Of a DNA stretch of 64,000 nucleotides, positions 22,100-54,907 are shown piece by piece. The position numbers and the translations under genes were made by a program. The stretch spans positions 40,548,001-40,612,000 of the forward strand of contig CM114271.1 in assembly GCA_050084515.1 (NCBI GenBank), written 5' to 3'. Source of the DNA: Blasia pusilla. Taxonomy: Eukaryota. The first letter of the stretch is position 1; each line of letters starts with the position of its first letter. The notes below the pieces were generated by a model. It was given only the letters and a program-made list of their open reading frames with translations. It was not told the origin of the DNA and did not search any database.

Positions 22100-23026
<927 letters not shown>

Positions 23027-23449
23027 GTCCGCCATAATTTTATCATAATCTTGAAGATGGTAATGGACCTCCAATAACACTAAATTAATTGTCTGAATAT
23101 CCAATGAAAGATTGAGAATTCCAATTCTCTGTTAAGAAGAAAAAATAAATAAGTTCAAACATAAATAAGTACATAACAAAATAATCATAAAAGAAATAAG
23201 AAAATTATTGACTAAACAAAAGGCATGCATTTGATGTTTAAAGTCGATCTTATGTTAGTGGAACTAAGAAATTTTCTCACACCATAGCCGGAAGAGAAGT
23301 TGTGTTACATAAAAGAATGATTGCAAAGAGTGTATGTAATGAATAATCAGTACAAATGACAACCACCTCTTCAAAGCAAGAAAAGATCTCTCTATCATCC
23401 TCCAAAAGTCTCATTTGAATAGCAATGTCTTTGAAGGTAGGATAAACCA

Positions 23450-24326
23450 CACCATCAATAATGTTATCTTATTGGAGGGACCCGATGGTATGGTTTGGAA
23501 GCACCATGTGCATAACTACACACCATGTTACCTTTCTAACATCGAAGGTATATTTGATTCGAGCTTAGCATTAGTTTATGCATGCTTGCGATGTATGTTG
23601 TGTGGTTTTGCCCGTGGTACAACCACTATGCTAGTATGTGATGGATGTTCAAGATGATGGCATATGGCATGTATGACGCCACCTCTCACTAGGGTTCCTC
23701 GGGGGTGATGGATGTGCCCCATATGTACATAGAGTAGATGCAAGATAGGTATAGATTTTGACTTGTACTTTTTATATGGATGAAAGAAGACGATTAACAA
23801 TGGGGGCATATGAGCACCGTGCCTTTTTGGTCATAGCGTCTTAGAGATGTATGTCATTGTAGCTAGGTTGGGATAGTTGGCTATTTGGAGTTTGAGGGAG
23901 TTAACCACCAGGTGGGGGTGGGGGCATTTGGAGATATTTTTGTACTTATCGTCTTGATGTTTGGATGCCATGAGTTAGCATGGGATTGTGTGTGTGTTTG
24001 TGTATGCAATCGATGACAACGATGCATGTTGTGTAGTGATGTGTATATGCACGACAATTATCAGATATTTTAGGATAGATTGCATAGTTCTAGTACAACA
24101 TCTTTGAGGATACTAGAGGACAGCCTTAAGGGGTTGAGAATGATTTTCCGAGGCCACGGGTAACCTCAAAGAGCAAGTTTCGTCTTCATTTCGGCTCATT
24201 TCGAGCCATATATACAAACTTGCTCTAGCTTTTGAGTACATTATTATTTCGAGCATAGTTCCTTGTCCAAATTGGGAAGTAGCCCTTGACCTCCTATAAC
24301 AAGCCAAGAGCCAAGGAAGCAACTTG
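23450..24326 (+). mobile_element. 3' remnant of the DNMT-Gypsy family: integrase tail, PHD, R segment, junction, partial L
   Basis: LLEGPDGMVWKHHVHN...CMLCGFARGTTTMLVCDGCSR..HMACMTPP...WMCPIC; G-rich tract; R at about 23928-24056; GACA-AT-TATCA junction; L homology to about 24326. Confidence 0.85.
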
Positions 24327-24447
24327 CAAGTTTATGATTGAGGTCTTCTCAATTGATGGAGAAGTAATCGTTACCGTTGACGCTCCCCTTGAGCTAGGAT
24401 AAGCAAAAAAAATGTAAAAAAAAGAAAATACAAATGAGTCTACAACA

Positions 24448-24770
24448 TTAACTTAATTCTTTGCCTTCATAATTGTATCTTAACACAAAATATAAAGTTA
24501 ACATAGGTTGATTTGTCATGTACAAACGTACAATAGGATATCTACATCCTTTTCGTGCACGTGTACGTGGATGATATTGCTTCTTATTCCAAGAGTAGTG
24601 AGAAGGGAACTCCAAATAAAGATGTTGTGTCGTCGAATGAGAAACATTTTTTGCAAACCATTGAGTGAGAGCGTGGTCCTTAGTTTGATCCACAAGGTTA
24701 GCTAATGAATCTTGCCCATGAAAATATACCATTTGACTATCTAGAAGATGGGCAATTAATGTCACAATAC
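24448..24770 (-). mobile_element. Helitron RepHel fragment (canonical type)
   Basis: ALTQWFAKN...HLYLEFPSHYSWN...IVRLY resembles the LTAWF..N...LY..FP..Y.W...IGRLY segment between Rep and helicase of canonical Helitrons. Confidence 0.6.
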
Positions 24771-25167
24771 TTGATTGCTTTGCATATGGACTAAACTTGA
24801 AGATTCGCCAACATGTTTCTGAAGAAGAAACGTAGCTTTATACCATACAATATAAATATTGTTAGAATCCGAGATTATATCATAGGAAAAAATAGTGATC
24901 CATGGAAAAAAAAGATCAAAATACCTTGCATCAAGATATAATAACGGCTCATCAATAGTATCCTTGGCTGATGTAGTATTTGCCAAGATATATGACATGG
25001 AATATATCAGATCCATTGTACACATACTTATAATCTTGGATTCTCAACATCCACTCCTCTGAGCACCATTAATCTGATCGGCCTCCTTGTATGAGAAGAA
25101 GCATAGATTGATGGTTATGAATTAGACGTCGAAGGAATCATAGTAATATGACGTAGGTGGTTTTAGG

Positions 25168-25260
25168 AGTAGCGTTACTAGGTTTATCTAACCCTATATT
25201 GCATCATGGTGCAGGGCACCATGATGCAATATAGGGTTAGATAAACCTAGTAACGCTACT
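25168..25260. repeat. Perfect inverted repeat, 45-bp arms, 3-nt loop
   Basis: 25168-25212 is the exact reverse complement of 25216-25260. Confidence 0.95.
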
Positions 25261-26626
25261 TGAGGATCCTGGTTGCATGTGCGGGGTTGCCCAGATGGAG
25301 GCCGCCGCAGTTGTGACGCGTGGAGCAGCCGCAGAGTTGGTTCCACAACGAGGGGAAGCCAGAAAACAGACTAGGCTTCCTCACTCTTTCACGTTGTCCG
25401 AAGCAATGAGGACCCCATCGATGGGTCCTCATCAAAGTTCCTTGAGAGTTGGTGATGTTGTTGGTGTGCAGGCACGGAGGGCGATGGGAGAAGCGAGTGC
25501 GACGACTCCTATTATTGATGCTCAGGAGGGGCATGTGTCGAGCACATTGTTGGGGGCGGCCACTGTTGTGTACCGCACTCCTTTATTTTCTGCTTCCGAT
25601 GTTATGACGTTGGGGGGTACGCCCGCCGAGGCTTTTCGGCTGGCCGTGTCGCTATGTGAGCGCGGAGTTGGAGTTCCTGCATCACGTTCAGAGGTGATTG
25701 CAGAGGAGGTGATGGACCTGCCCTTGGAGCGGATGCTCGGACCATCCACGTCAGATTCATGGCAGGCTGCGGCTGCTAGAATGGCGGAGATGCCCGCTAG
25801 ACCCGCAATAGAGCGTGCCATGGCTTCTCCTGGTGTTGTGTTGTTGGATAACCGAGGAGAGGTCTTCCAGTTGGTGAGTCATGGAGGTAGAGCTTTTAGT
25901 CCGCAGCGCGTCTTGTTGGATTCAGCAGCGCAACCCCTGATGTTGGGGAAAGCGTCATTGAGGATTGGGCTTGACGAGAGCGATGTGGAGCGTTGTCCAT
26001 TCCGGATCTGAGACATCCTTGGGTGGAGCGAGTACCGCACAGTATATCACCCGACAAGAGGTCGTGGTGAGGATTCGCCCGAGACATCCTACAGATGAGT
26101 CCGTGGTGCGTGTCAAGGCGATAGTGACTGATGCAGAGTCCTACGACGTCTTGGTTGGTGGAGCAGTGTTATACCCAATGGGTTTTTCCCTGGATTACTG
26201 GGAGGAGTCAGCGTCCGACAGAGCAGGATGGCAGTCACGTGATGGGTGCCTTAGCTCATTACCCGTTCGATTCATAGGTGCAGTGATCGAGCAACGGCTA
26301 GGAGAGATGGCGACCTTAGCAGCATTTACCAGTGCCATCACTTGGCCTAGTGATTTGATTGAGGGACATGTCCATGCAGAGGATACTCCTGTTCTTGACA
26401 TTTCTATGGAGAGGAGTGTTATGGTAGGTGCATCATTCCGTGGAGGAGAGGTGCCGATGTGGGGCTCGAGTGAGGAGCTTCGACGATTGGGAGATGAGCA
26501 CGTGCAGACCGCGTGGAGCGAGGCGTTTGCATCAGAGCGTGACAGGTCTGAGGAACCCAAGGTAGCCGGAGTGCTACGATGACACCCTTGGATACCACAC
26601 CCATTGTGTGGTGTACCCCGGAGGAG

Positions 26627-27580
26627 GATATTCGAGTGTTAGATCTCTTTGGAGGGATTAGCACCGGGTTAGCTACTGTTTTGTAGGCAGGAGTGCGAGT
26701 ACAATAGTACCTGTATGTGGAGAGTGATGATGTTGCAAGGCGCGTCTCACTATGACATGTGGCGCAGTTACGCCTACGTTTTCCCGACTTATTGTGTGCG
26801 TCCGCAGTACAGGGGTATCAGAGTTCCCTACCGAGGGATATTTCGTTGTTGGGGGCATAGGACTTAGAGTGGGTAGGGACCATTGATTTGGTCATTTCCG
26901 ATTGGCCATGTCAGGGCCAATCGAGTGCTGGACGAGGCAGCGGGTTGGCTGACACTCGGTCCAAGTTATTTTGGGAGATGTTGAGGGTCTTACGGCAGTT
27001 GCAGGAGCACCAGTCTCATTCTCCAGCCTATATTCTAGAGAATGTGCCGATCTTAGGAGACTCCCGGTCACGGGTGGTGACGAGTGCTCATCAGGTGTGT
27101 GCCTGGATCGGCCCAGCAGTGTTCTTGGATGCGGCGAGTGTAGGTTCTAGAGCCCATCGCCCGCGTCTATGGTGGACCAACTTGGTGCCCCATGTGGTGT
27201 TACGGAGGGCGTATGCGAGAGTGGAGCGCCCCTCCCATTTGTTGGTGGATTCCATTCTGGATCCAGGTCGTCGATCATAGGCAGTGAGGTATGATGATCG
27301 ACCACCGTTGACTGTGGTCAACAGGGTAGGCAGGCCGCGGGCAGCCTTGCCCACGTTTGTGAGTTTTCCTGCTTCCTATGCATACAAGGAGGCCGGTCCT
27401 GGCTTGGTTTGGGATGACCAAGTTCAGCGGTTAGTGGAGCCCAACGCCGACAAGAGAGAGCGAGCGATGGGATTTCCCACAGGAGTGACGGCAGTATCGT
27501 CAATGTCAGAGGCATCACGACGCCATGTCTTGGGTCAAGCGATGGACCTGAAGTGCTTGACATGGATCCTTAGCTTGGGA
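26627..27580 (+). pseudogene. DNMT3-like C5 cytosine methyltransferase domain within the retroelement polyprotein (premature stops)
   Basis: In the same frame as pol: IRVLDLFGGISTG (I), YVESD (II), DISLL (III), DLVISDWPCQGQSSAG (IV, catalytic PC), DTRSKLF (V), YILENV (VI), DAASVGSRAHRPRLWWTN (VIII), ERAMGFPTGVT (IX), RRHVLGQAMD (X). Confidence 0.93.
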
Positions 27581-27922
27581 GTGACTGAGCAACGTCGTAT
27601 GAGATCGCGATAGATCACAGCGGTTGCGTTGGTGAGCCCCATGCCTACCGAGACGGTGGAGGTAGTGGTTGGGGGCGAGACCCGAGGAGATCGGGAGAGA
27701 CACCCTTGGACTTCTTGGAATGTTTTGCAGGTACGCAAGGAGATGATAACCACAACATCAAGCGTGGCTTCGGGCACTGCACATGGAGGAGATCAGAGTT
27801 TGCAGTTGGCTGTAGGAGAGCGGCCGAGTGTTGTTGTTCGAGACGGGGTTGCACCATAGCAACCACCGATACCCATGCAGGAGAGTCCTACCGTAGTCAC
27901 GATGGAGACTTAGGAGCCAGAT

Positions 27923-30841
27923 ATGGGCCCTAAGTTGACAGGAGGAGAGCGGCGCCAAATACATCAATTCCTCAGGAGTTATAGGAGCTGCTTTGCGTTT
28001 AGCATGGAGGATTTGGGTACGCTGAAGGGACCGGGGATCCACATTGAGTTGTCGAGTGATACGCCGATCTTCCGACGACCCTACAAGTTTAGTGATATGG
28101 AGAGGGCTCTGATTCAGAGTAGGAGCCAGGACTTGGTTAGAGCTGGACTAGTGGAGATGTCGCATGGGGAGTATGCATCTGCCACTGTCATGCCTGCCAA
28201 GAAGGATGTGCATGGCAACTGGATGGATAGGCGGATGTGTGAGGATTACCGACCTATCAATCGGCAGACAAAGTCCGATAGGTATGCCATGCCCACCCCT
28301 GAGGAGATCTTTGATGCGATTGGTCACGCAAAGGTCTTTAGTTCATTATATTTGCAAGCCGGATACCATCAACTGCCTATCAGATTGGAGGACAGGCAGA
28401 AGACGGCATTTTGGGGCATCAATCCTCACGGGAAGGATTGTTTGTACCAGTGGAGGTTCTTACCATTTGGGTTAAAGAACGCCCCGACTGAGTTTCAGAG
28501 GGTCATGGATAGGATCTTGGCTGGTTTGGACTTTGCTAGGTGTTATATTGATGACATCGTAGTCTTTAGCGCCACGGTTGAGGAGCATGAGCGACATCTA
28601 GAGGAGGTGTTTCGACGATTGCAATTACATGGGCTGAAGCTACATCCAGGCAAGTGCAAGTTCTTCTACAACCAGATTGAGTACTTGGGTCATACGATAT
28701 ACCCAGGGGGCCTTGGTGTTCAGCAAACGAAGGTAGAGGCTATCTCATGCATTCCAAGCCCTACAGATGTGAGCCGTGTTCGTGCATTCATGGGATTGGC
28801 GAACTTCTATCGGCGATACGTCAAGGGATTCAGTTCGATTGCGGAGCCACTGACCTTGCTGACCAAGGTGGATCACGAGTGGCACTGGGGGGATGAGCAG
28901 GAGCGAGCATTTCAGTTGCCCAAGGACATGTTGACGTCTGCGCCCATCTTGAGGAGACCGATCAGGGGGCGTCCTTTCCAATTGCACACAGATTGGAGCA
29001 TGTTGGGGCTTGGAGCGGTGCTCACCCGGCATGATGATGAAGGTAGAGAGTTCGTGGTGGCTTACGCTAGCCGCTCGAACAACGCTGCAGAGGCAAAATA
29101 CAGCTCGTATGAGGGTGAGTGCTTGGCTGCGGTGTGGGCTGTCGTGCATTTCATGTGTTACATACTTGATAACCCCTTTACCATCATCATTGATCATCAA
29201 CCACTGAAGTGGTTGATGGAGTCCGACAAGCTTACAGGGAAGCTTGCGAGATGGGCTCTGTTGTTGCAGGAGTATGATTTTCAAGTGGTTCATAGACTTG
29301 GGACGCTCAACCAAGATGCAGATGGGTTGAGTTGTAACCCATGCTCGAGTCAGCGAGATGCGACTGGAGCTCGATGGCATGGAGAGAGTGATGAGGAGTC
29401 GATGCTAGGATGGCACGCGTCAGCCTATTTAGGCATGTTGGCTATGGAGAGCCAGAGTGTGGAGACTTCGATGGCGAGGTCTAATGGAGAGTCCTTGGAT
29501 CCCAAGGCCAGTGAGGAGACAACAAGGGGCCGAGATATTCATGATGATGGAGTAGTCTTGGAGTACCTTCGTACTGGCAGCGTTGCGAGCACTGTGGGTA
29601 CTAGAGAGCGAGATCGGATCCTACAGCGGGCCAGACGGTTCCGTTGGGAGGGGACACATGTTTTGAGGGTTTGGGAGGATGGCAGAGTACGCATAGTGCC
29701 GCATCCTTTGCAGAGAGCACGACTAATGCAGCATGCCCACGAGGAGTTGGGTCACTTTGGGGTGAAGCGGACGTACAACTTGCTCCAGATTCAGTATTGG
29801 TGGCGAGGCATGGAGAGAGACGTTGAGCAGTTTGTTGCCAGGTGCATGGTGTGTGATTGGGTCCGAGCATCGTTCAATGCTCCGACTCCACAGTTGCATC
29901 CATTACCGATCATGGGCTTAGGGTATAGATGGAGTTTGGATTTTGCAGAACCTTTGCCTTTGACAGAGCGTCACAGTCGTTATGTGTTGGTGATGGTCGA
30001 GCACTTCTCGAAGTGGATCGAGTTGGTTGTATTGCTTGACAAAGTGAGTGAGGGAGTAGCTTCTGCCTTCCTTGACAGAGTGCTAAGTCATTACGACGCA
30101 CCGGCTGAGGTGTTGACAGACCAGGGTATCGAGTTTTGGGGTGAGTTCCAAGCCTTGTGTGATCAAGCGCTCATCGACCATCGCACGACTTCGCAAGATC
30201 ATCTCGAGGCGGATGGATTAGCACAGAGAGTTGTGCAGACGATGAAGAGGGGTTTACGCAAGTATGGCTTGCAGAGAGGTCACCTAGGAGATTGGGACCT
30301 CCAGTTGCCATGGTTGGTGATGGGATACAGATTCAGCAGGCAGGCATCCTTAGCGTCTTTTTCACCGTACTTGCTACTTTATGGCCGAGAGCCAGATTTA
30401 CCTGCGGCCATTCGTCGAGATGCTGGTGAGGTTATGGACCTTGATGACCTAGATGTATGGGTGCGAGCATGTTCTCAAAGGGCTGAGTTATTTCAGAGAG
30501 TGATGCCCATGGCGTTCGAGAACTTGGCGACTGCACAACATCGGGATACGTTGAGGTATGCGACTATTCGGGAGGGTGGTTATCGACCAACTATCGGGAG
30601 GTTTCATCAGGGAGATTATGTCTACCTGCAGCAAACGGCACCGACGACGTTGGATGTGACTGCAGGGCGCACTATCCTGAGAGTGCGTGACGTTTTGCCA
30701 TCCGATGTTCTCTTGCTAGAGGGACGCGATGGTATGGTATGGAAGGACCATGTGCATAATTGTGCACCATGTCACCTTCCTAACATTGATAGTACAGTGG
30801 ATCCAAGCTTAGTAGTAGTTCTGCAGGCTTGCGTTGTATGA
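27923..30841 (+). CDS. Gypsy pol ORF: reverse transcriptase, RNase H, DDE integrase (972 aa open)
   Basis: RMCEDYRPIN, LPFGLKNAP, CYIDDIVV, GKCKF...YLGH; RNaseH motifs; integrase HHCC, WSLDF, LTDQG, ADGLAQR (the expected E appears as Q). Confidence 0.92.
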   Translation: MGPKLTGGERRQIHQFLRSYRSCFAFSMEDLGTLKGPGIHIELSSDTPIFRRPYKFSDMERALIQSRSQDLVRAGLVEMSHGEYASATVMPAKKDVHGNWMDRRMCEDYRPINRQTKSDRYAMPTPEEIFDAIGHAKVFSSLYLQAGYHQLPIRLEDRQKTAFWGINPHGKDCLYQWRFLPFGLKNAPTEFQRVMDRILAGLDFARCYIDDIVVFSATVEEHERHLEEVFRRLQLHGLKLHPGKCKFFYNQIEYLGHTIYPGGLGVQQTKVEAISCIPSPTDVSRVRAFMGLANFYRRYVKGFSSIAEPLTLLTKVDHEWHWGDEQERAFQLPKDMLTSAPILRRPIRGRPFQLHTDWSMLGLGAVLTRHDDEGREFVVAYASRSNNAAEAKYSSYEGECLAAVWAVVHFMCYILDNPFTIIIDHQPLKWLMESDKLTGKLARWALLLQEYDFQVVHRLGTLNQDADGLSCNPCSSQRDATGARWHGESDEESMLGWHASAYLGMLAMESQSVETSMARSNGESLDPKASEETTRGRDIHDDGVVLEYLRTGSVASTVGTRERDRILQRARRFRWEGTHVLRVWEDGRVRIVPHPLQRARLMQHAHEELGHFGVKRTYNLLQIQYWWRGMERDVEQFVARCMVCDWVRASFNAPTPQLHPLPIMGLGYRWSLDFAEPLPLTERHSRYVLVMVEHFSKWIELVVLLDKVSEGVASAFLDRVLSHYDAPAEVLTDQGIEFWGEFQALCDQALIDHRTTSQDHLEADGLAQRVVQTMKRGLRKYGLQRGHLGDWDLQLPWLVMGYRFSRQASLASFSPYLLLYGREPDLPAAIRRDAGEVMDLDDLDVWVRACSQRAELFQRVMPMAFENLATAQHRDTLRYATIREGGYRPTIGRFHQGDYVYLQQTAPTTLDVTAGRTILRVRDVLPSDVLLLEGRDGMVWKDHVHNCAPCHLPNIDSTVDPSLVVVLQACVV

Positions 30842-30975
30842 TGTGTGGTTCTGCACGTGGTGCGGCCACGATGCTAGTATGTGATGGTTGTTCGAGAGGT
30901 TGGCATATGGCATGTCTGACGCCACCTCTCACTAGGGTTCCTCGGGGATGATGGATGTGTCCCAGATATACATAG
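30835..30975 (+). pseudogene. PHD finger at the integrase C-terminus (separated by a 1-bp frameshift, one internal stop)
   Basis: CMMCGSARGAATMLVCDGCSRGWHMACLTPPLTRVPRG*WMCPRY fits C4HC3. The last Cys is intact in the 23590-23730 copy (WMCPIC). Confidence 0.88.
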
Positions 30976-31161
30976 AGGAGATACTAGGTAGGTTTCGATC
31001 CCGAATTTTTCTCTGACATGGATGATAGGAAGGTGACTAACGATGGGACCACATGAGCACCCGGCCTTCTTGCTCTTAGCATCCGAGAGATGTATGTCAA
31101 GGTAGGTAGGGATAGATGGCTATCTAGAGTTAAAGGGACCTAACCACTTGCTAGGGGGGCG

Positions 31162-31934
31162 ATTGGAGATATTTTGGTACTTCTTGTCTCGTTGTTTGGA
31201 TGCCATGAGTTAGCATGGGATCGTGCGTGTTTGTGTGCGTGTTCGGTGATAGCGATGTATGTTGTGTAGCGATGTGTATGCGCACGACAACTGTCACGTC
31301 TTTTAGGATAGATAGGTGAGATCTAGTAGAGCGTCTTCAAGAGTAGTGGAGAACAGGCATAGGAGGTCGAAGATGACCTGCTGAGGCCCCAGGAAACCTG
31401 AGAGAGCAGGTTTCCCCTTCATTTTGGCTCATTTGGAGCCATATTGAGGAACTTACTGTTTTAGGTAAGTACCATTTTAAGTATACGATCGACTTTATAT
31501 TTTTGGTAAGTGGCCCTTGACCTCCTTCATCAGGTCAAGAGCCAAGGAGGTGACTTGGGAGAATAGGTTACCATGGAGAGAGCTTGGGAGAGGGGAGGGG
31601 TATATATCCCAAGGAGAGAGAGCTTGAGAGCTCATTCTCTCTTTGTTGAACCTCTTGGCATGAGGCGGCGGAGCTATGGTCCCTTGCCTTGTGAGTGTAA
31701 CCCAAGCCTCTCATTAGGTGAGTGGGTTTAGTTTGACATGAGAGAGAGTGCACACCTTTGAGAGCTATGGTGTGAGATTGTGTAGAGAGCGATTGGATCT
31801 TACTTTATTGGAGATATTTTGGTGCTTCTTGTCTCGTTGTTTGGATGCCATGAGTTAGCATGGGATCGTGCGTGTTTGTGTGTGTGTTCGGTGATAGCGA
31901 TGTATGTTGTGTAGCGATGTGTATGCGCACGACA
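31162..31934 (+). repeat. R-L-R terminal structure: 128-bp direct repeats R1 31162-31289 and R2 31807-31934 flanking L (31292-31806)
   Basis: R1 and R2 differ at 2 of 128 positions. R1 follows a G-rich tract (TAGGGGGGCG). The R1/L junction is GACA-AC-TGTC. Confidence 0.93.
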
Positions 31935-34900
31935 ATGCCAAACGGGCACCATCTCCTCATCACTCTCTCCGTGCCATCGAGCTCCAATGTCATCTCTCTG
32001 ACTCAGACATGGGTTACGACTCAACCCATCTGCATCCTGGTTCAGCCGGCCTAGCCTATGAACCACCTCAAACTCATACTCCTGTAGTAACAAAGCCCAC
32101 CTGGCAAGCTTTCCCGTAAGCTTGTCGGACTCCATCAACCACCTCAACGGCTGATGATCAGTGATAAGTGTGAAAGGGTTGCCGAATAAATAGCACCTGA
32201 AATGTGCCACGGCCCACACTGTAGCCAAGCACTCTCCCTTGTAGGAGCTGTACTTTGCCTCTGCAATGTTGTTCGATCGACTTGCGTAAGCCACAACGAA
32301 CTCCCTCTCCTCGTCATCCCTCTGAGTAAGCACTGCTCCTAGACCCAACATGCTCCAATCCGTATGTAACTGGAATGGGCAACCCCTAACCGGTCTCTGT
32401 AAAATGGGTGAGGACGTCAACCTGTCCTTAAGCTCTTGAAATGCTTGTCCTGATCATCTCCCCACAACCAAACCTGATCAAGTCTCATTAACAAGGTCAA
32501 AGACTTTACGATCACACTAAAACCCTTGACATACCGTCGATAGAAGTTCGCCAGTCCAAGAAATGCTCGGACTCGACTCACATCTATAGGGCGTGGAATA
32601 TGCCCAATAGCCTCTACCTTCGTCTATTGAACACCTAACCTACTCGGGTATATGGTGTGTCCCAAGTACTCAATCTGCTCCTGAAAGAATCTGCACTTGC
32701 CTGGATGTAACTTCAGTCCATGTAACTGCAATCGCCAAAACATCTCCTCCAAGTGTCGCTCATGCTCCTCAACCGTGGAACTGAAGATAAGAATATCATC
32801 TATGTAACATCTTACAAAATCCAAGCCAGCCAGAATCCTATCCATCACTCTCTGAAACTCTACAAGCGCGTTCTTCAACCCAAATGGTAAGAACCGCCAC
32901 TAATACAAGCAATCTCTCCCGAACCGATCTATCCCCTGAATCGTTGTCTTCTCCTCGCCCTCCAACTCCGATAGGAAGCTGATGATAGCCAACAGGGAGA
33001 TCTAAAGTACTAAAGATCTTTGCATGCCCTACTGCGTCAAAGATCTCCTCAGGAGTAGGCATGGCATATCGATCTGACCTCGTATGTCGATTGATAGGAC
33101 GGTAATCTCCACACATCCGCCTATCCGTCCAATTGCCATACATATCCTTCTTCGCCGGCATGACTGTGGCATATGCATACTCCCCATGTGATAACTCCAC
33201 AAGTCCTGCCTCCAACAAGTCCCGACTCCTGCTCTCAATCAAGGCTCGCTCCATATGAGAATACCTATAGGGTCGACGAAAGATCGTCGTCTCACTAGCC
33301 AACTCAATCCGTATCGCGGGACCCTTCAGCATACCCAAGTCTCTCATACTGAAGGCAAAACAACTGACATGCCCTCTCAGAAACCTATGAACTCGCCGTC
33401 GCTGTCCTCCTATCAACTTGAGACCTATCATAGGCTCCCAAGTCTCCATCGTGACCTCACTTGGAGAGGACGCAACCTCCGGCTTTGGTTGCTATGTAGC
33501 AACCCTAGCCAACTCCGCAACAACCACTCCACTCTGACCTCCTACACCATGCTCCACATCCAAAAAATAACATGTGCTACTCTAGCCGCCTTCGCACTCT
33601 CTTCTCGAACGACGTCCCAGGAAGTCTATGGGTGCCTATCTCTCCTCGTCTCGCCCCTAGCCAATGCCTGTACAAGCCCTGTAGGCAATGGTCCAACTTG
33701 TGGACGTGACGGCATGGATGACACTTGCATCCGTCTCTGCTCAACCATACCTAGGCTGACTATCCATGTGAGAGAGTTGAGGTCCATCGCCTGCCCCAAC
33801 ACCTATCTCCGGGATGCCTCAATCATCCCTGGCACCACCATGGTATGGGTAGCGAACCCCATGGCGCGCTCGCGCTCCTCTGCTGTAGGCTCCTTCAATG
33901 CTCCGGTCACCTCATCCCAAATCATGCCTGGCCCTCCCTAACGAAAGGCATGGGATGCTGGGAAGCTCACCAACGTAGGTAAGGCTGCCCTCAATTCCCC
34001 CACCCTATTGGCCATGGCCAACGATGGTCTATCATCCCGTGTCACCACTTGAGATCGACGCCCTGAGCCCAAAATAGCATCCATTGTGAGATGTGGTGCT
34101 CTCTAGACTCCATCGTATGCTTGACTCAATACCTCTGATGGTATCAGGTTCGTCCACCATAGTCGTGGACGATGGGCACATGATCCAACTCTCGCCGCAT
34201 CTAATAACACAGCAGGTCCCAACCAAGACCTCACCTGATACACACTCGTCATCACACGTGCACGAGTGTCTCCCAACAACGGCACGTTCTCCAAGATGTA
34301 CGTTGGAGAACATGTCTGATTCTCCTGCAAGTGTCGTACTACTCGCAACATCTCCCAAAACATCCCTGACCTCGGATCCTGCAATCCAAATCCTCGGCCT
34401 GCTGATGAATGACCCTGACATGGCCATCCAAAAATCACCAAATAAATGGTGCCAACTCTATCTAGATCCTACGTCCCCCCCAAAGAGATGTCGGCGGGTA
34501 GTGTATGTTGATATCCACGTACTGCATATACTGGCAACAACTCATGATTCCTCTGAACCAATCTCGCCACATGAGGTAATGATACTCGCCGCGTGGTCTC
34601 ATCTCTCTCCACATAAAGGTACTAATGCACCCGTATGCCCGCCTGCAATACTGCAGCCAATCCGGTGTTAATCCCTCCGAAGAGATCTAACACCCTAACA
34701 CCCTCTTCTGGGCACTGCCACACAGCGGGTGTGGTATCTAGTGGGGAAAACGTCTCCACTCCAAGAGCCTGATCGCCACGTGACTCTCGCTTCTCCGGGA
34801 TAAAAGCATGACTCCACGCCTGCCTCACGAGGTCGTCGGCACTCCTCTGTAGCTCTCGAGTCGTACCCCACAATGGTGAAGAGGTCTCGCCAACATGGGA

Positions 34901-37900
34901 AGAGACACCCGCCATGACCTGTCTCTCCGTGGGACTATCTGCTATTGGGACATGCTCCGCATGTGCGTTCCCCTCCAACAATTCTCCTGGCCAGCTAACA
35001 CTTCCTGTGAAAGCCGCCAACGTGGTCACACACTCGCCTCGTGATCGACCACCTTGTCCCGCAAACTGCACGGGTAACTGACTCATCCGGCCGTCACCTG
35101 ACCGCCACCCTGGCCGATAAGCAACGGTCTCCTCCTGGAAGTCAAGGATGAATCCTAGGGACACAACACTGTACTCCCCACCAACACATCGTAGGACTCA
35201 GTTGGTGTCGTAATCGCACGTGTGCGCACCATAGCACTATCAGTCTCATGCTCTGGCTGGACTCTGACAACTATCTCCTGTTGAGTCATATACTACGTGG
35301 GTGACACGCCCCCAATCAAGGTCTGTATCTGGAAGGGACAAGGCTCAATGTTGGCCTTCTGTAACCCCAACGCTAAACACGCCGCCTTCCCTAACATCAA
35401 GGGTTGCACTCCTGAATCAAGTAGGATGCGCTGCGGGTGGTATACTGTCCCTGTCAGACTAACCAAGCAAAATACTCAAGCTCGATTATCCAGTAACACT
35501 ACTCCAGGTGTCACCACTCCTCGTTCTATGGCCGGCCGAGTTGGCATATCTACCAACTTCGCCGCCGCCGCATGCCATGACTCTGTGGGGAACGTCCCGA
35601 GCACCGACTCTGAGGGCAAGTCCACCACCTCCTCAATTACCTCTGAACAAGAAGCAATCATCTCTCCACACTCACACAACGTGGCGGCCAGCCGGAACAC
35701 CTCAGCTGGTCCAACTCCCAACGTCGCCAACTCTATGGCGGAAAAAAGTGGAGTCTGACTCACTCTGGTGGCCACCTCCAACACTATGGTCGACACTGAC
35801 TCTACTCAAGCCGGCATAGGAGTTGTCACTCCAACTCCTTGTGATGTCGACGTAGGTGCTTGAGCTGTAGGCACCGCTGGTTGCCGAGGCACCATCGATG
35901 GTGTGTGTAGTGCCTCCGACAATGTGAAGGACTGTGGAACTCTGGCCTGCCGCCCATCGGTCCTCTCTCGTGGGTCAATCTCAACTCCACCTCTCGATGG
36001 CTCGGTGCCTCTTGCAGCACCCGGAGTCACCACTGCAGCTGCCTCAACCTGGGTTGCACTACACATAAACCCCATACTGGCGAGATCCTCACCCGAGTCA
36101 GGGTAAGAGGTAGAAGCTAGAGTCACACTAGCTGCTCGCAGCACCGTGCCCTCCCTAAGCTGCATCATCGTCATGGCAGCAATCCTCTGCTCCAACTGAT
36201 CGATGCGTGAGAGAAGTGCCGGCTCTGGTGCTCCTGCTCCATCTCCTCTGGCTAGTGGTGGTCCTCTACCACCACGTCCAGGAAGGACTCCCCGACCTCC
36301 TCTACGACGACCACCCCCAGGCCCTCGGCCTACTTTTGGACGTGCCCCTCGGCGAAGGTCAAAACATCTATCCCTAGTGTGACCATATCTGTGGCAATAG
36401 TCACACTGGTGTTGTGGTGGGGCCATCCTCTGTGGCTCCTGAGCAATGGTGGTCGTTGGTGGTCCTCTCCCATGCTGTGGGCAGTCTCTCTGCCTATGGG
36501 CCCCTCCACACATCCAACAAGACCACATCGGTCCCTGTTGGGCAACATATGTAGGTACGGGTCATTGCCTCATAAGCTCACGGTACCCGCCCTGCTCTCT
36601 GGGCACACCGGCCCGCTCTCGTGGTACTGGTGCTCGCTGTGGCACCTGTGGGGTCACCGTCGCTCTTGGACCCGTCGACTCTCGAGAAAATCTAGCGGTC
36701 ACTACCTGCTCCTCACTCATGTTGAGCTCAATACGATCAGACAACTCAAAGACCACCTTCAATGTGGGCTTCGCTGTGTGAATCAGCACAGCATGTCGGA
36801 CTCTCCTCCATAGTTCTCGGTCCGTAACCCACCAATCATCGGACTCGATCGCGCCTCGATCACTCCATACGTAGCAATGATCAGCCTCCTCATGCATGTG
36901 AATGCCTCTCTCAAACTCTCACCCGATCGTCGCTGAAAATCCTGTAGACTCTTCAGCTTGTCGGTGCGTACGCCCTGGTAGCTCTTCCCCAATGGTCGGA
37001 AGAACTCCATTGTGGGGCTGAAGCTGGGTGGCCCTCTACCACCAGAGGTCTCTGCCACATCACCTGTCTCACTGACCTCCTCTCCATCTAGTCGTAGGGC
37101 TGATGGTGTGGGTCTCTCTCCTCTCACAATTCCATCATATGCCTCGCGACCACTAGTGGACACATACCCTGGAGCCCAATACATCCTCCACGCATCGATC
37201 TCTACTCAATATAGTGATCGAAACTCCATGTAGTCATCCATCGGAGGACCCTCCAAGTGCTGGAACAACCCCTTCCATGCCATGAAAGGGTTGAACCGTG
37301 TCAGGGTCCGTATCTCCTAGAAGTCGCACCACGTTTCTAACTCCTAGATAAAATCATCTAAGTCGATGGTGCCCACTACACCCGAGAAATGACGCATGCC
37401 CCGATGGCCCATGTCGTCCATCTCCTGCCAAGTACTACTGTCTCTGTCTGCGATCTCGTCACCAGACCCAGTGTCTAGTGATGACGATACAACCACGGAT
37501 GGATGTCGAGGTAGCTCCTCACTGGTAACCCCTCGGTATCTCACTCCACTCCGTGTCACACCACTACTATTGCTCACACTACCCCGTTCTTCCGAACCTT
37601 AGAAGAACGCCGTGATGACAAACCCTTTCTCACCCGCTCAAGCACTCAAACTCACCGAGAGTCTCCCACACACCTCACTAGCTCACCTATGCTAACATCA
37701 ATCCCGTGATGACATACCCGGCCTCACGCACACTCAACACTCGGGCTCACCATGAGCCTCCCAACTGACTCACCTAACGTAGCGACACTCTCTCGGGTCA
37801 TACACGCGACCCCTACTCGGCAACCGCCGTATATCCACCAACATGCTACACATGAATAGAATCTACACTCGTCACCATCACTGCACCCACCTACCACCAA

Positions 37901-39881
37901 CTACTACCCGATACCCAGCACTCTCAATCACACACGACAAGTGCGGGAAAAGGGACTCGAATGGGTAACCTGATCACGCCCTCCAACCTGCTGCACCATC
38001 AACATGCACTCCTCCACGTGATATGACAACCTCCGCAACACGACACTCTCCTCGACCCACACGTTGATCCTCCCGTCAACAGATGCGGACAACATGTCGG
38101 CATCATGCGTACTGCCCCTCCATCGTCAACGCCCTGTTGCGCCCAAAACATCATGTCGCGCAAACCTCTCCGTCCATCCCCACACGCGGCATGTAACCTG
38201 ACTCACCCTGGTCGGATCCCAACCATGTCTTCCCTTCCGACTACGTCCGACTTTACCACGTCACTCCCGCCAATTGTGGTACCATGTCGGACTGCGCTAC
38301 CACGTTCAGCCCTTGCAACTCCACCACATCCACTCGCACTTGGTAGCCTTGTCACCATGTTGACCTTCCACCACGTCCGGTCCTACCACGTTACTAACTT
38401 CACTCCGTCCGGCTAAACTGCAACCACATACCTCGGTCCTACCTCAGCCGACTCCATCCCCAAACTTGGACACGCCGCCCTATGCGGAAACATCCCTCCC
38501 ACTTCTCTCGAACTCGCGCTCGTGTGGCCTGCTTCCCCATGCGTGGCCTTTACTCCCTTCCTAGCTCTGTACCTATATAGGTACATACTAGGTACCACCG
38601 TACCTGGTCTAGAGCCTTAATGGCTACTCCCGCTCTTCCAACTGCGTGGCCACGTCTCTCCTTCAAATCCCCCCATTATGCTCTCTCTCTCTCTTGCATG
38701 GCGGACCTCTGTACCTAACCGTGGCTTCCCTAACCTCCGTGGATGCCTTCAACCTAACTGCCTTTAATGAGGGAGTGCAGCTCCCTATGTGCTCACCTCC
38801 GGCTCCCCCAAAATCTCGAAGCTGTGCGTAGCCCCGCACAACTCTCCCCTTCCCCAGCTTTCGGCTTGTCCTTAGGAGCTCACATGGCACTATAGATCGA
38901 CCTTCCTGTTTTGTGTCCTACTCCAGGCAGGCACGCGTCCCTATGGATGGACCCTCTCATTCCTCCTACTTTGGAGTCATAATGACTCTCAAGACCCTCT
39001 CTATCCTTCCGGCCAGGCTTGCCTCCGCGTCATGTACCTGTGTGTAGCCCGACCCCTATCACCTGCACGACCTAACCCTAGGCGACCTAGCCGCCCTTTA
39101 CTTGAGAGCCCCCTGGCGGCTACAAGCCCTAACTCTCCTTCCTGCTAAATCCCGACATTCCCGCTATTAGACGTCGCTACACCTGCCGTCACAACCTGCG
39201 CTAAATCCTGTTGTTGTCCCCCATCAATCCACACCAGCAAAATGTGAGAAAAATGGATTGCGCTTCCGCCCACGGTCTTCTGAACAGAAAAATGACCAAC
39301 ACCTGCAACACACGTGTCTCCAGGGGCTCCCGACCAAGGCAACTCGCTTGCCTACCTGCATACAACGAATTTCCCACCAGCCCCATGACATCTTTCTCAT
39401 GTAAAAATAAAGAGTAGTAAAAATGGCACACCTGGCCTAAAACTCCACTCCTCAATCTACATCGGCATATCGAGCCTCGTCCACCCTGTGCTATCAAGGA
39501 ATCCGGACGCTAGCACCCTAGTCCTATCTCACACACATACAAGAGAGGTGCTCCAACGGCCCAACATGAGAAAGATGCTTAGGAAAGCCACCTTCCTCTC
39601 TTATATAGGGTTGGGAAGAGCCAAAAGGCTCTTCCCCTAAAAATAGCCCTCCCCTTGGTAACCTACGCGTACAGGTTACCAGGGGTGGGCGACCTGGTCA
39701 ACAAGTCACCCGGCTGTGAAAGACCTCAACATGAAAGATATCAGAAACGACGTTCCTGACACAATGGACCTATCCTCGACCTCATACGACACCGTGGGAC
39801 AAAGTTACACTCAAGATAGTCCGCTGGCTCCTACACCCTATCCACGATAGATCTCGGCCTATCGGCTACTCAGATGTGACA
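31935..39881 (-). mobile_element. Ty3/Gypsy-type retroelement copy 2, 3'-truncated after RNaseH: L-type 5' end, long leader, gag (2 CCHC), protease, C5 DNA methyltransferase, RT, RNaseH
   Basis: Starts TGTCAC at 39881. gag from about 37577 with CWMCGGAHRQRDC and CDYCHRYGHTRDRC; ILLDSG protease near 35420; DNMT; RT with YIDD; RNaseH cut at 31935 by copy 1. Many stops and frameshifts. Confidence 0.93.
33750..34700 (-). pseudogene. DNMT3-like C5 cytosine methyltransferase domain of copy 2
   Basis: VRVLDLFGGINTG; LVIFGWPCQGHSSAG; DPRSGMF; YILENV; DAARVGSCAHRPRLWWTN; ERERAMGF; VLGQAMD. Confidence 0.93.
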
Positions 39882-39968
39882 AAAGAATCAATCAATCCAG
39901 AGCACAGAGATATGTCCAAGTGGTGTAAAGTTTGAATGGGATGACCTTTTTTGGTCCAATAGTGGATT

Positions 39969-40074
<106 letters not shown>

Positions 40075-40867: not shown

Positions 40868-41069
40868 CAAAGTTCAACCGATGTTGTGAATTGCTGACCT
40901 TAGCTAGTGTGTTAACTTTGACAAACATTGTAACACTCACAACAACCTATGTGTACAACAAAAGGAAATGCAAATATATTGCAACACTGGTCGTTGTGAG
41001 TGTTACAGTGTTTGTCAGAGTTAACACAACTAGCTAAGGGCAGCAATTCACAACATCAGTTGAACTTTG
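40868..41069. mobile_element. MITE-like long inverted repeat (~80-bp arms)
   Basis: CAAAGTTCAACCGATGTTGTGAATTGCTG...CACTCACAACAACC pairs with GGTCGTTGTGAGTG...CAGCAATTCACAACATCAGTTGAACTTTG with few mismatches and a ~40-nt spacer. Confidence 0.6.
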
Positions 41070-41240
41070 AGAAGGATGCGCCAACCATTTTATCATTTTC
41101 GAGGCTTCCTACTTCCTTTCGAGAGAAGCTTTCTAGCCACTATGTGCATAGTCAGGGATCTCTTCCAAGACGAGAAATAGTTCTCATGTTCTCTATTTTC
41201 CAGATACGTCCATTTTTTGGCAGATGCATTTCCGATGTTG

Positions 41241-41319
41241 TCGAATCCCAGTAATATGAACTGTAGAGAACCAACATCGGAAATGTTGGTTCTCTACAGT
41301 TCATATTACTGGGATTCGA
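41241..41319. repeat. Perfect inverted repeat, 37-bp arms, 5-nt loop
   Basis: 41241-41277 is the exact reverse complement of 41283-41319. Confidence 0.95.
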
Positions 41320-43922
41320 AAACTTCTTCAACATCCTTTGACATTTCTAAGGCCTCAATTAGATTTGGAAAGTATCCTTTGTTGATCCTTTTGGATCTCA
41401 TTTAGTAGGAAGGAAGTAGCCATAAGCGTCTCCAAAATCAGGAGTCTTCTTTGACACACTCTTTCCCTTGCCCTGTGTCGCCTTCATAGTTTTTCTTTGC
41501 GTCGATATGTTATTTCATTTTATATTATCACATGAACTTGTCATTTGCAAATGTGTGAAACTGTCAAAGAAGAATGTCTGACGAAAGACCCGGTCGGATC
41601 ATTTAGTGCGAAGGCCAAGGAGCACTTCGAGGCGCGCAATCCAACCTTGTTGAGGGCCGAGGAGAGCTTGGAGATGTTACATTAGGAGTAGACTGAGGAG
41701 GTGATGATGGTGGAGCCGCACTTGACTCGTTCCTCTCTAAACTCTCTCAAGTACCATGCAAACAATCCATGTGTTCAATTAGGTGTATAGATCTCTACTA
41801 GCACTTTTGCAATGAAGCACAATTTAGGGTAGAGTTGATTATAAATCTATCCAATCTACAATACCATCAAATACACTATGTATACTTGGTAGAATTTAGA
41901 GCTGATTAAAACTTGATCATTACACCTCAATGGCAAGATTACGTATGAAAAAAATCAATTTATACGTACATGTTCATGTGCACGAACGAATGTCTTTCTG
42001 CTGGATAGATTTGTCCATATAAACTCCATTTTGTCCTTCTTTCTCATCCCTAACTTGACTCCATGTTGTACATTTTTTCATTTCTTCTTCCCACTTTCGC
42101 TTCCTTGCCCATTCTTATTATATTTGCCTCTAACTCGCCTTCCACCTCGAATTACAAAAATGGCCCCTACCTCTTAAAATCCATACAAGTGAATATGAAC
42201 TTTGCATGCTCGTATGGAGACAAACATGTCCAATTTTTTCCATGCTCCATAATCTAAATAAAATGAGTCCAACTATGGAGGTACTTGAGTAACTTAAAGA
42301 AGCTTGTAGAGAGAATTCCCGTGACATGTCTGCATGCAATAAATACTAGACACTACTCAGTCCTCAAAGGTTGGGAAACCTTTAAAGGAAGGTCCACCTT
42401 AGGATCAAGGGCACTTCCATAAGAGGTTACATACTAGTCAACCTCGAGTGAGAACTTGGCTGCTTACTACGATAATTGTCCCATACATTAATGGATCCAA
42501 CCCTAAATAGATACCTCATTGAGCAACACTTGGCAAAATTGGGTTGGATTAGAATGCCAAGTATCAAGAGGAGGGCTGTTCGAATTGCAATCCAACACTT
42601 TCCAAAATCAGTATAAATTACTTCACCGTTGGCAAGCATGAATAAGATCAGTCTAAAATGTTTCAATCCAAACATATCCTCATTTGGTGAAGATTCCAAC
42701 ACAAGGAAGATTCTGTCCCTCGATCCCAAAAACAAAGTTTATCCATAAACATAAGATAACCAGAATTCACCCACCACCATCCTCTTCTTATTCCTTGCAT
42801 CTCTGATTCATCCTGTCGTCCAACTTTTGACCCACTTATTCTACTTCTCTATCCTTACATGATCTGCTGATGTCTCAAACAAGTGGATGCTCAATGTGAT
42901 CCAATCTTCTGAAGCAGTCGATTTCTACGAGTTAAGCACCTAAGTAACTAGGTCACCAACTTAATCAAGGCAACTCTGCAGTACATTTCCTCACAGGCAG
43001 ACTAGTCGCTCTCTTGCATCTCTCCCCATAGTGACACTCTGGGCTCCAGACAATCGGAAGAGTGATACACCTCTTTATTACAAAGCTCTTAACAATATCT
43101 TCTCTTGGTCCATCTGGACACTAGAAACATTCCAGCTAGAGGTCAGCTTTAGGGTCCTACAATTCCCTAAATAGCATCAATCAACCACCAAGCTGAATGT
43201 GTCCTGGTTGCTGACCCTCTTTACACCCAAAAATTTCTCAAATTCTCACTGTAGTCAAGACACAGCTATCCCATATTTGTGTAGCCAATAATGGGCCACC
43301 TGATCAGCACATCTTAAAATTAATGAACAGACTGGCTCATTTAGAAAGTGTGAGACGGGCAGGATGGTAGTATCATGAGAGCTGTGCCAGACCCAGAGAC
43401 CTTTCATGTCCCACGGACACCAACAAATATGAAAAAGTTAGCAAGGTGGTCTCCTGGTCCAAGGAAAACCAAATGACTCTTGTAAACGACTCCTGTTGTG
43501 GGCACAAGATCAGGTCTTCTGACAAATCAAAGAGGGGGGCGGAGTGGGGGTAGGTGTAGGGGAGTGGATGGGAGTTATTAACCTACAGAGCTTGCAAAAC
43601 TGGAGCATGGAGTAATTTACAACCAAATCATGGTCAAACAGCTTGCAAATGAAGGATTATACTCTGACAGAGAACAATTGAAACAAAGCTTATATCCTCG
43701 CCATATCATGAACTGGGCCATGTGTAGTGACTACCAAGTCCAATAAACCAAAGCTGAGGAAAGCCATGTCCATACAATCCCCATGCAAAGTTGCGAGACA
43801 TTATATAACCAATTGAAGCGGCATGTGTGGTGGACAAACATTCACAATCTCTCCATAAGTAAAGCCTGGTGTTCCATGGAGGGAGATCCTACAAGAAATA
43901 TGTACATTATCAAAGACAACCA

Positions 43923-52125: not shown

Positions 52126-53222
52126 TTCATCAAGACGAATGCAATAAATTTTGATATCCATTTGGTTAGAGTCCATTTTTTGATACATTTTGAAATAAAA
52201 TATAATTGTATCCATTGGAGAAAAAATGTAGTTATAAGAAGTAATTTCCAATAAGATTTTTACCATAAAATATTTTCCATGTATGTAGATTATTACTTAT
52301 AGACTTGGAATTCTTTTTTCTTTAAAAAAAACCTACTTTTATTTTCCTTGTAGAGTCATGTCTATTTAAAATACTTTATTCCTAAATATGAGTTTAGAAA
52401 GAACAAATATTCACCAACACTATTCTAACAAAACTCACTATACCAATTTGGTGTAAATTGCATATATTTTCATTGGCTTTAAGTTAAGTTTTTTTTCAAT
52501 AGTTAGATCACTTTCTTCAAACTTTCACAAACCAAAAAACATCTAAATTGTTCCTATATTTCCATAAAATTTTCCTTATTATTAAAATAATAAAAATCTT
52601 AATATTATTTTATAAGGATACAAAGGTTCATTATTTTTAAAAAAACTATAGAGGCTTTGTCATGTGAATAAGTCATCACTTATATCATAAAAAATATTTT
52701 AATCATCAATATGAACTTTACAAAAAAGAAATATCCACCAAATATGCATGTGTAAATATTATATGTGGAAGGACATGGGATTGTGGTTCAGTGTGGGTAG
52801 TTTAGGTTTGAATCTCAGACCCTTCATGTTTTGATGGAAGAACGAACATATAGATGGAGAATAGAAGAATGGAAGTAAACCCGAACCATGGGTCGAGGAA
52901 GGATGAAATATAGGATAAATCCATGGGTAGAGCAAAGGATGGATATAAGATGGAAAATGGAGAATGGACATACACATTGATATCACTAATCAAACACACA
53001 AAACATTACACTAAGTATTCATCTACAAAATCTAAACACAATGGCAACTATCTATCAAATTATCTCCAACTAAATAGAATGTTACATAGAAATAAAATTT
53101 TATTTCTTTCTTTCTAAACCAAACCCATTCTCGTGATGAAAGCATAGGGCTACTCACAAGTCAAGAAGTACCATAACTCTCCCACCTTACAGAAGGGAGG
53201 TTTAACAAAGATATAACAAGAT

Positions 53223-53260
<38 letters not shown>

Positions 53261-53441
53261 ACAATAATTTCCTCAAATATGTTCCAAATGAATCCAAACC
53301 AAGGGAAAACCAACACTTACAAATATTCCTACTTCTGCAAGTTAATCTACTTCTCAATAGACCATCTTTGACTTATAGGGCTCGAACTTTGGTCTCTCTT
53401 GAAGTGTCGTGCAAATAATATTCCTTCCACTAAAAAAGAAA

Positions 53442-54590: not shown

Positions 54591-54644
54591 CAAAGCTTTT
54601 GTTGGTACGACAAACTAACTTAGAAATATGTCGAGGAAGGCATG

Positions 54645-54851: not shown

Positions 54852-54907
<56 letters not shown>

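Follow-up and report, generated by a model that had tools for sequence, protein, structure and literature searches.

The 64,000-nt stretch of Blasia pusilla DNA analysed here (the window) contains a plus-strand element in which gag, protease (PR), a C5 methyltransferase (DNMT), reverse transcriptase (RT), RNase H (RH), a DDE integrase (IN) and a PHD finger follow in this order, and which ends in a split repeat, R1-L-R2. For the family as a whole the portion corresponding to L is called A and that corresponding to R is called B, numbered from the 5' end. The focal copy comprises the following features.

25168 to 25260, no strand: fold-back truncating the element at its 5' side, with gag start, 5' L and primer site gone (self-BLAST, 96.8% inverted match)
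25261 to 26580, plus: gag tail and protease region, with stops and frameshifts (translation; tblastn to the minus-strand relative)
26588 to 27592, plus: DNMT3-like C5 cytosine methyltransferase domain, broken by stops (PF00145, E 1e-9, stops read as X)
27857 to 27865, plus: in-frame TAG then CAACCA, likely read-through stop between DNMT and RT (motif recurrence)
27914 to 30841, plus: RT, RNase H and DDE integrase in one frame of 975 aa (Pfam RVT_1, RT_RNaseH, Integrase_H2C2, rve)
30835 to 30966, plus: PHD finger, out of frame with the integrase in this copy (PF00628, E 1e-11)
31153 to 31161, plus: polypurine tract adjoining R1, putative plus-strand primer (a G run lies directly before B1 in relatives too)
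31162 to 31289, plus: R1 = B1, ending GACA, predicted left portion of the reverse-transcribed LTR (sequence)
31286 to 31295, no strand: candidate internal attachment site, GACAGCTGTC with one G-to-A (junction census)
31292 to 31806, plus: L = A2, starting TGTC, predicted remainder of the LTR with promoter and the equivalents of R and U5 (sequence; loose read ends at both edges)
31601 to 31606, plus: TATA box (TATA-to-self-primer spacing equal in relatives)
31631 to 31646, plus: self-primer sequence beginning 30 nt after the TATA start (16-nt reverse complement of the sequence after the 5' L of other copies)
31806/31807, no strand: L-to-R2 joint, putative point where the two cDNA ends meet (both ends, as set by the primers, fall here)
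31807 to 31934, plus: R2 = B2, with the GACA that ends the element (sequence)

The focal copy and its kin in the window

The sequence-only reading had described the end of the element as two 128-bp copies of R around L, behind the PHD finger and a G-rich tract, and the description held in detail. R1 and R2 are each 128 bp long, end in GACA and differ at 2 of 128 positions; the 2-nt spacer between R1 and L reads AC; L, claimed at ~516 bp, measures 515 bp and has its TATATA from 31601; and the G tract lies at 31153-31161. The GACA of R2 is indeed the end of the element, because from 31935 the sequence lies within the RH-IN linker of another family member on the opposite strand. The R-to-L joint recurs, as claimed, in two diverged copies (GACA-AT-TATC at 24053-24062; AACA-AT-TGTC at 53452-53443, minus strand), and L-to-R joints were found again at ~22896 and ~54770. 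The R-L-R end is genuine and common to the whole family.

The focal copy itself is dead: gag, PR and DNMT carry stops and frameshifts, a frameshift lies ahead of the PHD finger, the catalytic E position of the integrase reads Q, and the 5' end is lost. Among solved structures its methyltransferase is closest to DNMT3A (E 4e-13), with DNMT3A, 3B and 3C on top of the PDB matches, and the best PDB match of RT-RH is Ty3 Gag-Pol (E 4e-88). The Pfam rve match and the Ty3-like PDB match bear out the earlier claim of a DDE integrase; a tyrosine recombinase was found in none of the 10 frames of at least 120 aa of L081, an intact relative, nor in the Pfam lists of the clade proteins. L081 has the same domain set as the focal element, with the PHD finger fused to the integrase, and gives a weak match to Asp_protease_2. 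The PR-RT-RH-IN order, the Ty3-like RT and the DDE integrase are those of Ty3/Gypsy elements (Metaviridae). Between DNMT and RT, an in-frame TAG-CAR-YYA occurs in the focal copy (27857-27865, plus), in the second element (33494, minus) and in 6 of 42 loci, as against 4 of 313 control windows; the loci are L001 and L009 (one and the same locus), L010, L011, L012 and L081, and in L081 it is the sole stop of the polyprotein frame. CARYYA is a read-through motif; if the TAG is read through, the main product would be gag-PR-DNMT, with RT-IN-PHD made via read-through.

Further members and fragments of the family lie in the window as follows.

22615 to 23020, plus: L-to-R fragment (3' end or solo A-B)
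23461 to 24326, plus: old copy with IN end, PHD, G tract, R, GACA-AT-TATC and the start of L
31935 to 39881, minus: second family member with 5' A, gag, PR, DNMT, RT and RH, at 69% DNA identity, interrupted by the focal element
39389 to 39402, minus: putative primer-binding site adjoining the 5' A of the second element on its 3' side (complementarity; duplex in the predicted fold)
39403 to 39881, minus: 5' A of the second element, 479 bp, starting TGTC, TATA at 39607 (read depth falls after it)
39564 to 39577, minus: self-primer of the second element, 30 nt past the TATA start (14/14 complementary to 39402-39389)
52957 to 54642, minus: old copy with IN, PHD, G tract, R, AACA-AT-TGTC, internally deleted L and a decayed second R
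54645 to 54863, minus: L-to-R fragment ending GACA, within the integrase of another copy

In the copy at 53.0-53.6 kb, the score of the decayed second R against its own first R is reached in 0 of 500 shuffles, and a second R-L-R is therefore present in the window. The 5' A of the second element aligns weakly to L (21 of 500 shuffles), and no R-like sequence was found after it (429 of 500 shuffles score equally; this is weak alone, as the R of that element is not in view). The second element has the knuckles CX2CX3HX4C and CX2CX4HX4C. At two places, 31934/31935 and 54645/54642, family members are nested in members of the same family, in the RH-IN linker and in the integrase, respectively; such nesting would fit a PHD finger that steers insertion into repeat-rich chromatin.

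Fold-back hairpins were noted at 22550-22618, 25168-25260, 40868-41069 and 41234-41326, the first two at joins of unrelated element pieces, and (GA)n runs at 7787-7852, 22765-22859, 39972-40072, 53226-53268 and 54855-54904, of which three mark deletion breakpoints within L fragments and several come after TCACA or a similar word. The window further contains a 1.6-kb duplication (4020-5603 and 13182-14758, 93.8%), each copy with a three-exon gene that we take to resemble ribosomal protein L15, a TMEM120 host gene at 44000-48205 (minus), a piece of a Copia element (RT-RH, short LTR-like end) at 56950-58430 (minus) and a decayed Copia-like piece upstream of the fold-back at 24500-25160 (plus). 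Among named organisms, the first exon of a host gene matches liverworts only (4 of 5 hits, with Marchantia the best at 61%), which makes a liverwort the probable host. No tRNA gene was found within the window.

Layout in host reads and in relatives

As the focal copy is truncated, the 5' repeat is known from reads of the host species, mapped on 22870-39960, and the target duplications from relatives. In the reads, L is followed by one conserved sequence other than R (53 contigs, agreement 0.83; 38 RNA reads, 0.81) and is preceded by mixed flanks (35 contigs, agreement 0.47; 76 RNA reads, 0.49). The host contains the family in abundance and transcribes it: RNA depth over the element is 40-217x in sense versus 0.4-14x in antisense, with the strand assigned by the usual library convention and its flip over the minus-strand element. 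Sense RNA runs at 120-217x throughout the R-L-R stretch, where reads of R1 and R2 are indistinguishable. Nearly all mapped reads are 85-99% alike to the focal copy, and therefore copies other than this one are expressed. RNA starts do not pile up at 31631, and the tables of read starts and ends show no accumulation at the predicted start or in A2. RNA reads that join 28027 to 29099 (14 and 23) skip 1071 nt in frame and drop RT and part of RNase H; the ends of the skipped stretch are not GT..AG in the focal copy, and it may be a splice or an expressed deleted copy.

Relatives were collected by a metagenome scan, of which the best 80 of 268 were examined; they come from short-read assemblies and belong mostly to two families. 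A scan of genomes added four loci (L081-L084), plant or algal retroelements that lie in prokaryote genome bins (two cyanobacterial, one Mollicutes) as contamination, and a scan of viral contigs yielded no relative. The complete order A-internal-B-nn-A-B is present in eight distinct loci of the best 80 of 268 (L004, L027, L040, L043, L048, L056, L066 and L079). All eight of these full-length double-form relatives carry A alone at the 5' end and B-nn-A-B at the 3' end, as had been expected from the R-L-R end of the focal copy. Thus, for the focal family, the order A-coding-B-A-B combines a 3' half from the window with a 5' half from the reads and the eight relatives. With the loci from both scans taken together, B-nn-A-B is seen in 15 distinct loci, always after a G tract, besides two copies in the window. 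In the best 80 of 268, B stands before or after A at 0 of 17 distinct 5' ends, 5' ends of the order A-B-nn-A were not found, and none of the 12 elements visible at both ends has two identical complete LTRs; an identical block at both ends together with a tRNA primer site, the arrangement that would have spoken against the proposed layout, was seen at 0 of the 17 5' ends. The relatives begin with TGTC and finish with GACA, as predicted. A short target duplication of fixed length had likewise been anticipated, and the 12 elements with both ends in the best 80 of 268 have one of 4 bp, exact in eight, with one mismatch in three and atypical in one; TG...CA ends with a duplication of 4-6 bp are those of Ty3/Gypsy elements.

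Besides this double form, the relatives occur in a single form, A-internal-B: 11 distinct 3' ends among the best 80 of 268 stop at the CA of B1 and continue into flanking DNA. The 5' A is visible for four of the 11, with an exact duplication in L008 and L073, one mismatch in L078 and an atypical one in L049. Three loci with a short or interrupted B (L005, L029 and L030), as well as L011 and a copy nested in L022, recognised by pattern only, were excluded from the 11. Single and double forms are intermixed in the tree and do not differ in divergence (0.066 versus 0.068, p 0.65), a test of low power because all 20 copies are similar in age. The single form could come from a 1-LTR circle or from linear DNA cut twice, or could equally have arisen by later recombination between B1 and B2. 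L010, L033, L081, L083 and L084 read polypurine tract-B-nn-A-internal; these are probably collapsed assemblies and were not taken as circles. In L049 (4141-4152 and 13210-13221; the same locus as L051), both ends seem to retain the 2-nt spacer beside the 4-bp duplication, as if 5' overhangs had been filled in; the arrangement would also fit a duplication of 6 bp plus an insert of 2 nt.

Internal palindrome, primer sites and the route to integration

The 18 B-to-A junctions from the best 80 of 268 relatives centre on a perfect 10-bp palindrome, GACAGCTGTC, to which four conform exactly, 13 with only C-to-T or G-to-A changes and one with a transversion. The three joints in the window likewise depart from it by such transitions only, and it is exact in 4/4 of L081-L084, including L084, a member of the other subclade with DNMT after RH. 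In 858,749 nt of loci, the exact palindrome occurs nine times, each time at the B-to-A position, with ~0.45 copies expected. These data point to CA-nn-TG as the decayed form of a perfect palindrome inside the LTR.

Putative primer sites agree with this placement. A site starting with TGG, as for a tRNA primer, is absent after A in 17 of 17 5' ends of the best 80 of 268; instead, a word located about 30 nt past the TATA start recurs as its reverse complement directly after A1. The pairing spans 16 nt in the focal family and in L010, 14 in the minus-strand element of the window (14/14, equalled by none of 43 control windows), 13 in L081, and 12 and 12-15 in the families of L004 and L048, respectively. 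The words differ wholly among these six families while the pairing is kept, and they begin 26-33 nt past the TATA start. In the best 80 of 268, at least 10 of 12 positions match at the expected spot in 10 of 17 5' ends, and the other seven have no good match there, four by deletions and three by decay. L073 shows a compensating change in the pairing, and in the two leaders whose folding was predicted, the structure is closed by this duplex. In L033 the match lies 55 nt away from the nearest TATA-like word, and in L083 and L084 a self-primer was looked for and not found. The self-priming mechanism of Tf1, the spacing of starts from a TATA box and decay at CHG positions are general background here; the complementarity observed suggests priming of the Tf1 type. 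In four 5' A copies (L004, L007, L008 and L025), different deletions of 12-29 nt cover a hairpin at the predicted start site, amounting to 4/6 5' A copies versus 0/4 3' A copies.

The G tract adjoins B1 in every family seen. With one putative primer site right after A1 and the other directly before B1, the reverse-transcribed LTR would therefore be B-nn-A, and the linear cDNA would therefore end without TG...CA; only if the LTR is read in this way do primer site and polypurine tract follow the Ty3/Gypsy order. The sequence-only reading had taken CA-nn-TG itself for the end-to-end junction of the cDNA, which does not fit, since, by the primer sites, the cDNA would begin with R and finish with L. 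The true joint would rather be that between L and R2 (31806/31807). Its companion idea, that the internal CA-nn-TG supplies both termini of the element, gains support.

In accordance with such a joint, A2 stops at the start of the primer site, and for 11 of the 15 A-to-B joints of the best 80 of 268 the base that follows the G tract is also the first base of B2, although in the L048 family a shared AT leaves the precise joint ambiguous. The other four are aberrant, with a 17-nt insert, a large deletion and two losses of 2 nt, versus 0 of 17 boundaries between A and the primer site, a difference that rests on four events (Fisher p 0.038; best 80 of 268); the joint of L082, the sole member of its family with a B2, was left out of this indel count. 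B1 and B2 of one element share more rare states than expected (5.0 versus 2.1, permutation p 5e-5), and a 15-nt unit is missing from both B1 and B2 in L056 and from B1 only in L040; sharing of this kind is also expected from subfamily kinship. L021 (3361-3878) contains A2, a copy of the primer site and an inverted A ending GACA that differs at ~10/180 positions, which we read as a plus strand that may have copied the primer and folded back at the self-primer.

From these observations, and with a probability that we put at about 0.6, it is suggested that the cDNA ends are joined, giving a 2-LTR or 1-LTR circle, and that the integrase opens the internal palindrome with a 2-nt stagger. The element would then be of Ty3/Gypsy type with its integrase attachment sites in the middle of the LTR, head to head, as GACA-GC-TGTC. 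Judging from the spacing, the transcript would start in the 5' A, about 30 nt past its TATA box; by pairing of its first 12-16 nt with the site behind A1 it would prime minus-strand synthesis in the manner of Tf1, and the G tract in its observed position before B1 would prime the plus strand. The product would be an ordinary LTR-internal-LTR DNA with B-GC-A as LTR and physical ends that lack TG...CA. Joining of these ends, in a 2-LTR circle or as a head-to-tail joint, would create the A-to-B joint, and in one of the palindromes the integrase would cut each strand 3' of CA, yielding at a single stroke two processed ends with 2-nt 5' overhangs, which would be inserted to give the 4-bp duplication observed in relatives. 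If the upstream palindrome is opened, A-internal-B-GC-A-B would result, the sole form equipped with the repeat for another round, while a 1-LTR circle, or linear DNA cut at both sites, would give a dead-end A-internal-B. B2 would be remade from B1 in each cycle and need not be present in the RNA. The element thus probably works like Ty3 as far as the linear cDNA and thereafter like a circle-opening transposon. Counting against a closed circle is a bias in the site opened: among the 12 elements with both ends in the best 80 of 268, it is the upstream one in eight and the downstream one in none. A closed 2-LTR circle has two equal palindromes and should therefore give both double forms equally often, whereas A-B-GC-A-internal-B and the observed form stand at 0 versus 8 (binomial p 0.008; best 80 of 268). 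The bias could stem from nearness of the upstream site to the left DNA end or from joining after the cut, and one may speculate that the co-encoded DNMT3 marks the palindrome to be cut.

This bias is accommodated more easily if the same LTR geometry operates with no free circle, the linear cDNA being cut at the left palindrome, only 106-176 bp from the DNA end, and the free ends of A and B being joined later by host repair or by an RT jump before integration. Products, duplications and joint indels would be equal, and for an RT jump the primer site and B begin with the same base in most families, a possible microhomology; for chromosomal repair of long free ends, 11 precise joints of 15 (best 80 of 268) probably exceed what would be expected. 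We consider this route a possible but clearly less probable one than joining into a circle. Still less likely, in our view, is a scheme like that of PAT or Ngaro, in which the RNA runs through B2, terminal redundancy and the internal junction template both ends, and an integrase replaces the tyrosine recombinase. The repeat layout is identical, most joints are uniform inside a family, and the sense RNA over the full R-L-R stretch, where R1 and R2 cannot be told apart, would be in keeping with it. The primer site after A1, however, would lead minus-strand synthesis onto the repeat within A2, which lies 5' of B2, and the RNA of B2 would therefore not be copied; the start of B2 at the G-tract boundary, the fold-back in L021, the single form and the indels specific to the joint are likewise unaccounted for. 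Of the replication scheme favoured in the sequence-only reading, the split-repeat layout thus stands, while reading of R2 from the RNA is difficult to reconcile with the primer site that follows the 5' L. That the element is an ordinary Gypsy element with L+R as LTR, its additional R being due to misassembly or to insertion in tandem or nested fashion, is a very remote prospect, even in a window crowded with nested and truncated copies and fold-backs: B follows A at none of the 17 5' ends, B-nn-A-B recurs in the 15 loci and two window copies (best 80 of 268 plus the genome scan), and in the host reads L leads into internal DNA. The reads and relatives already refute this explanation.

Known systems and the clade

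The A...B-A-B layout is shared with the DIRS split-direct-repeat groups (PAT, Ngaro, SymbioDIRS-Dnmt3), for which a circular intermediate has been proposed; these groups carry a tyrosine recombinase, whereas the present family has a DDE integrase, a protease, TG...CA ends and 4-bp duplications. In IS3, IS30 and IS21, a DDE enzyme opens abutted ends with a 2-3 bp spacer in a circle, but these elements copy out as DNA only, with no reverse transcription.

The closest counterpart is KnitGypsy-Dnmt3 of Klebsormidium nitens, which the legend of Fig. 4c in de Mendoza et al. 2018 (PMC5890265) describes as having Gypsy domains and repeats as in a DIRS retrotransposon, the latter being defined there as A-coding-B-A-B. 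The A...B-A-B arrangement on a Gypsy element is thus already on record, in a figure legend. Both elements have Gypsy domains, a Dnmt3-like domain in Pol and the A-coding-B-A-B order, as far as that source describes them (PMC5890265); in the focal element there are also an in-frame stop between DNMT and RT and a PHD finger, and its host is a land plant. By layout and cargo, it is a land-plant member of the KnitGypsy-Dnmt3 kind. On the primer site, polypurine tract, termini and target duplication of KnitGypsy-Dnmt3, on a palindrome, PHD finger or single form in it and on its mechanism, the main text of PMC5890265 is silent, and in the literature searched the name appears in that paper only. An internal attachment palindrome, self-priming or a single form in this clade were found in no published account in the literature searched, with subscription journals and Repbase Reports lying outside the search.

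Self-priming has also been described for plant Tcn1 chromoviruses (Neumann et al. 2019, PMC6317226). As described in the accessible text of that source, Tf1/sushi and Tcn1 elements resemble the present family in self-priming instead of using a tRNA, seen here as complementarity, and in a Ty3-like RT-RH-IN; theirs are two ordinary terminal LTRs and a chromodomain, in contrast to the PHD finger, DNMT3 and permuted LTR here. Tcn1 was compared by description, as the RT tree contains no Tcn1 sequences. In the available portions of PMC1180852 and PMC4372172, foamy virus and HIV-1 integrases cut palindromic 2-LTR junctions. There, too, a CA...TG palindrome in circular DNA gives processed ends, as we propose here, but the retroviral reaction is a disputed side route and its palindrome arises from the joining of cDNA ends, whereas here it would be hard-coded inside the LTR and the ends would have no attachment site. 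A resemblance to Troyka elements, raised in the sequence-only reading, did not survive comparison. As far as the consulted text of Kojima 2025 (PMC12440569) describes them, Troyka elements are restricted to animals and have CG...CG ends, a 3-bp duplication, a CX2CX8-10HX4C knuckle and ordinary LTRs; they share with the present family an LTR retroelement nature and the PR-RT-RH-IN order, whereas this family has TGTC...GACA ends, a 4-bp duplication, other knuckles (in the minus-strand element) and a plant host. Membership in Troyka was rejected, as none of its termini, duplication, knuckle and host was found here. The accessible text of PMC6890710 merely lists the Troyka label, and that of PMC8557442, PMC12344493 and PMC9985172 contributes nothing further on such ends.

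It has been debated for decades whether circular retroelement DNA can truly act as an integration precursor, with evidence from side routes of foamy virus and HIV-1 only. The present family appears to use this debated route routinely, and its clade appears to place the attachment sites where processing at the ends is impossible, which makes it a natural test system and offers an explanation for a layout recorded without a mechanism in the Klebsormidium element. If such use of circular cDNA is the rule in the clade, it would be a reverse-transcribing counterpart of copy-out-paste-in transposition of the IS3 type, one that arrived convergently at the split-repeat layout of DIRS elements. As a tool, too, an integrase able to open one defined site of 10 bp in a DNA circle could be of use. 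LTR finders are predicted to miss such elements because they have no paired full LTRs.

Long RT-IN-PHD relatives were found in Haematococcus, Klebsormidium, Closterium and environmental contigs. With this clade the range of DNMT3-carrying retrotransposons comes to include land plants and, on protein evidence, chlorophytes. We regard the chances as about evenly split that an entire Gypsy clade of the green lineage, from chlorophytes to land plants, uses end-joined circular cDNA as its obligate substrate. The integrase would then recognise an invariant palindrome within the LTR and would integrate 2-LTR circles as well as 1-LTR ones, only the 2-LTR product being mobile again. In a quick RT tree of 133 rows, in which automatic DNMT tags mislabel a few rows, the relatives of the focal element fall into a clade of 70 rows (SH-aLRT 91). 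A K. nitens polyprotein, P0042, in which no Pfam DNMT was found, groups in the RT subclade of the focal element (SH-aLRT 93; long branch, published KnitGypsy-Dnmt3 sequences not in the tree). In this 29-row subclade DNMT precedes RT; in the other, of 41 rows, it lies mostly between RH and IN. The latter position was observed in P0005, P0006 and P0023 (Haematococcus lacustris), about 25 environmental proteins and L084 (6875-7858). The sister subclade would thus represent DNMT-bearing Gypsy elements in chlorophytes, the domain having either moved or been gained twice.
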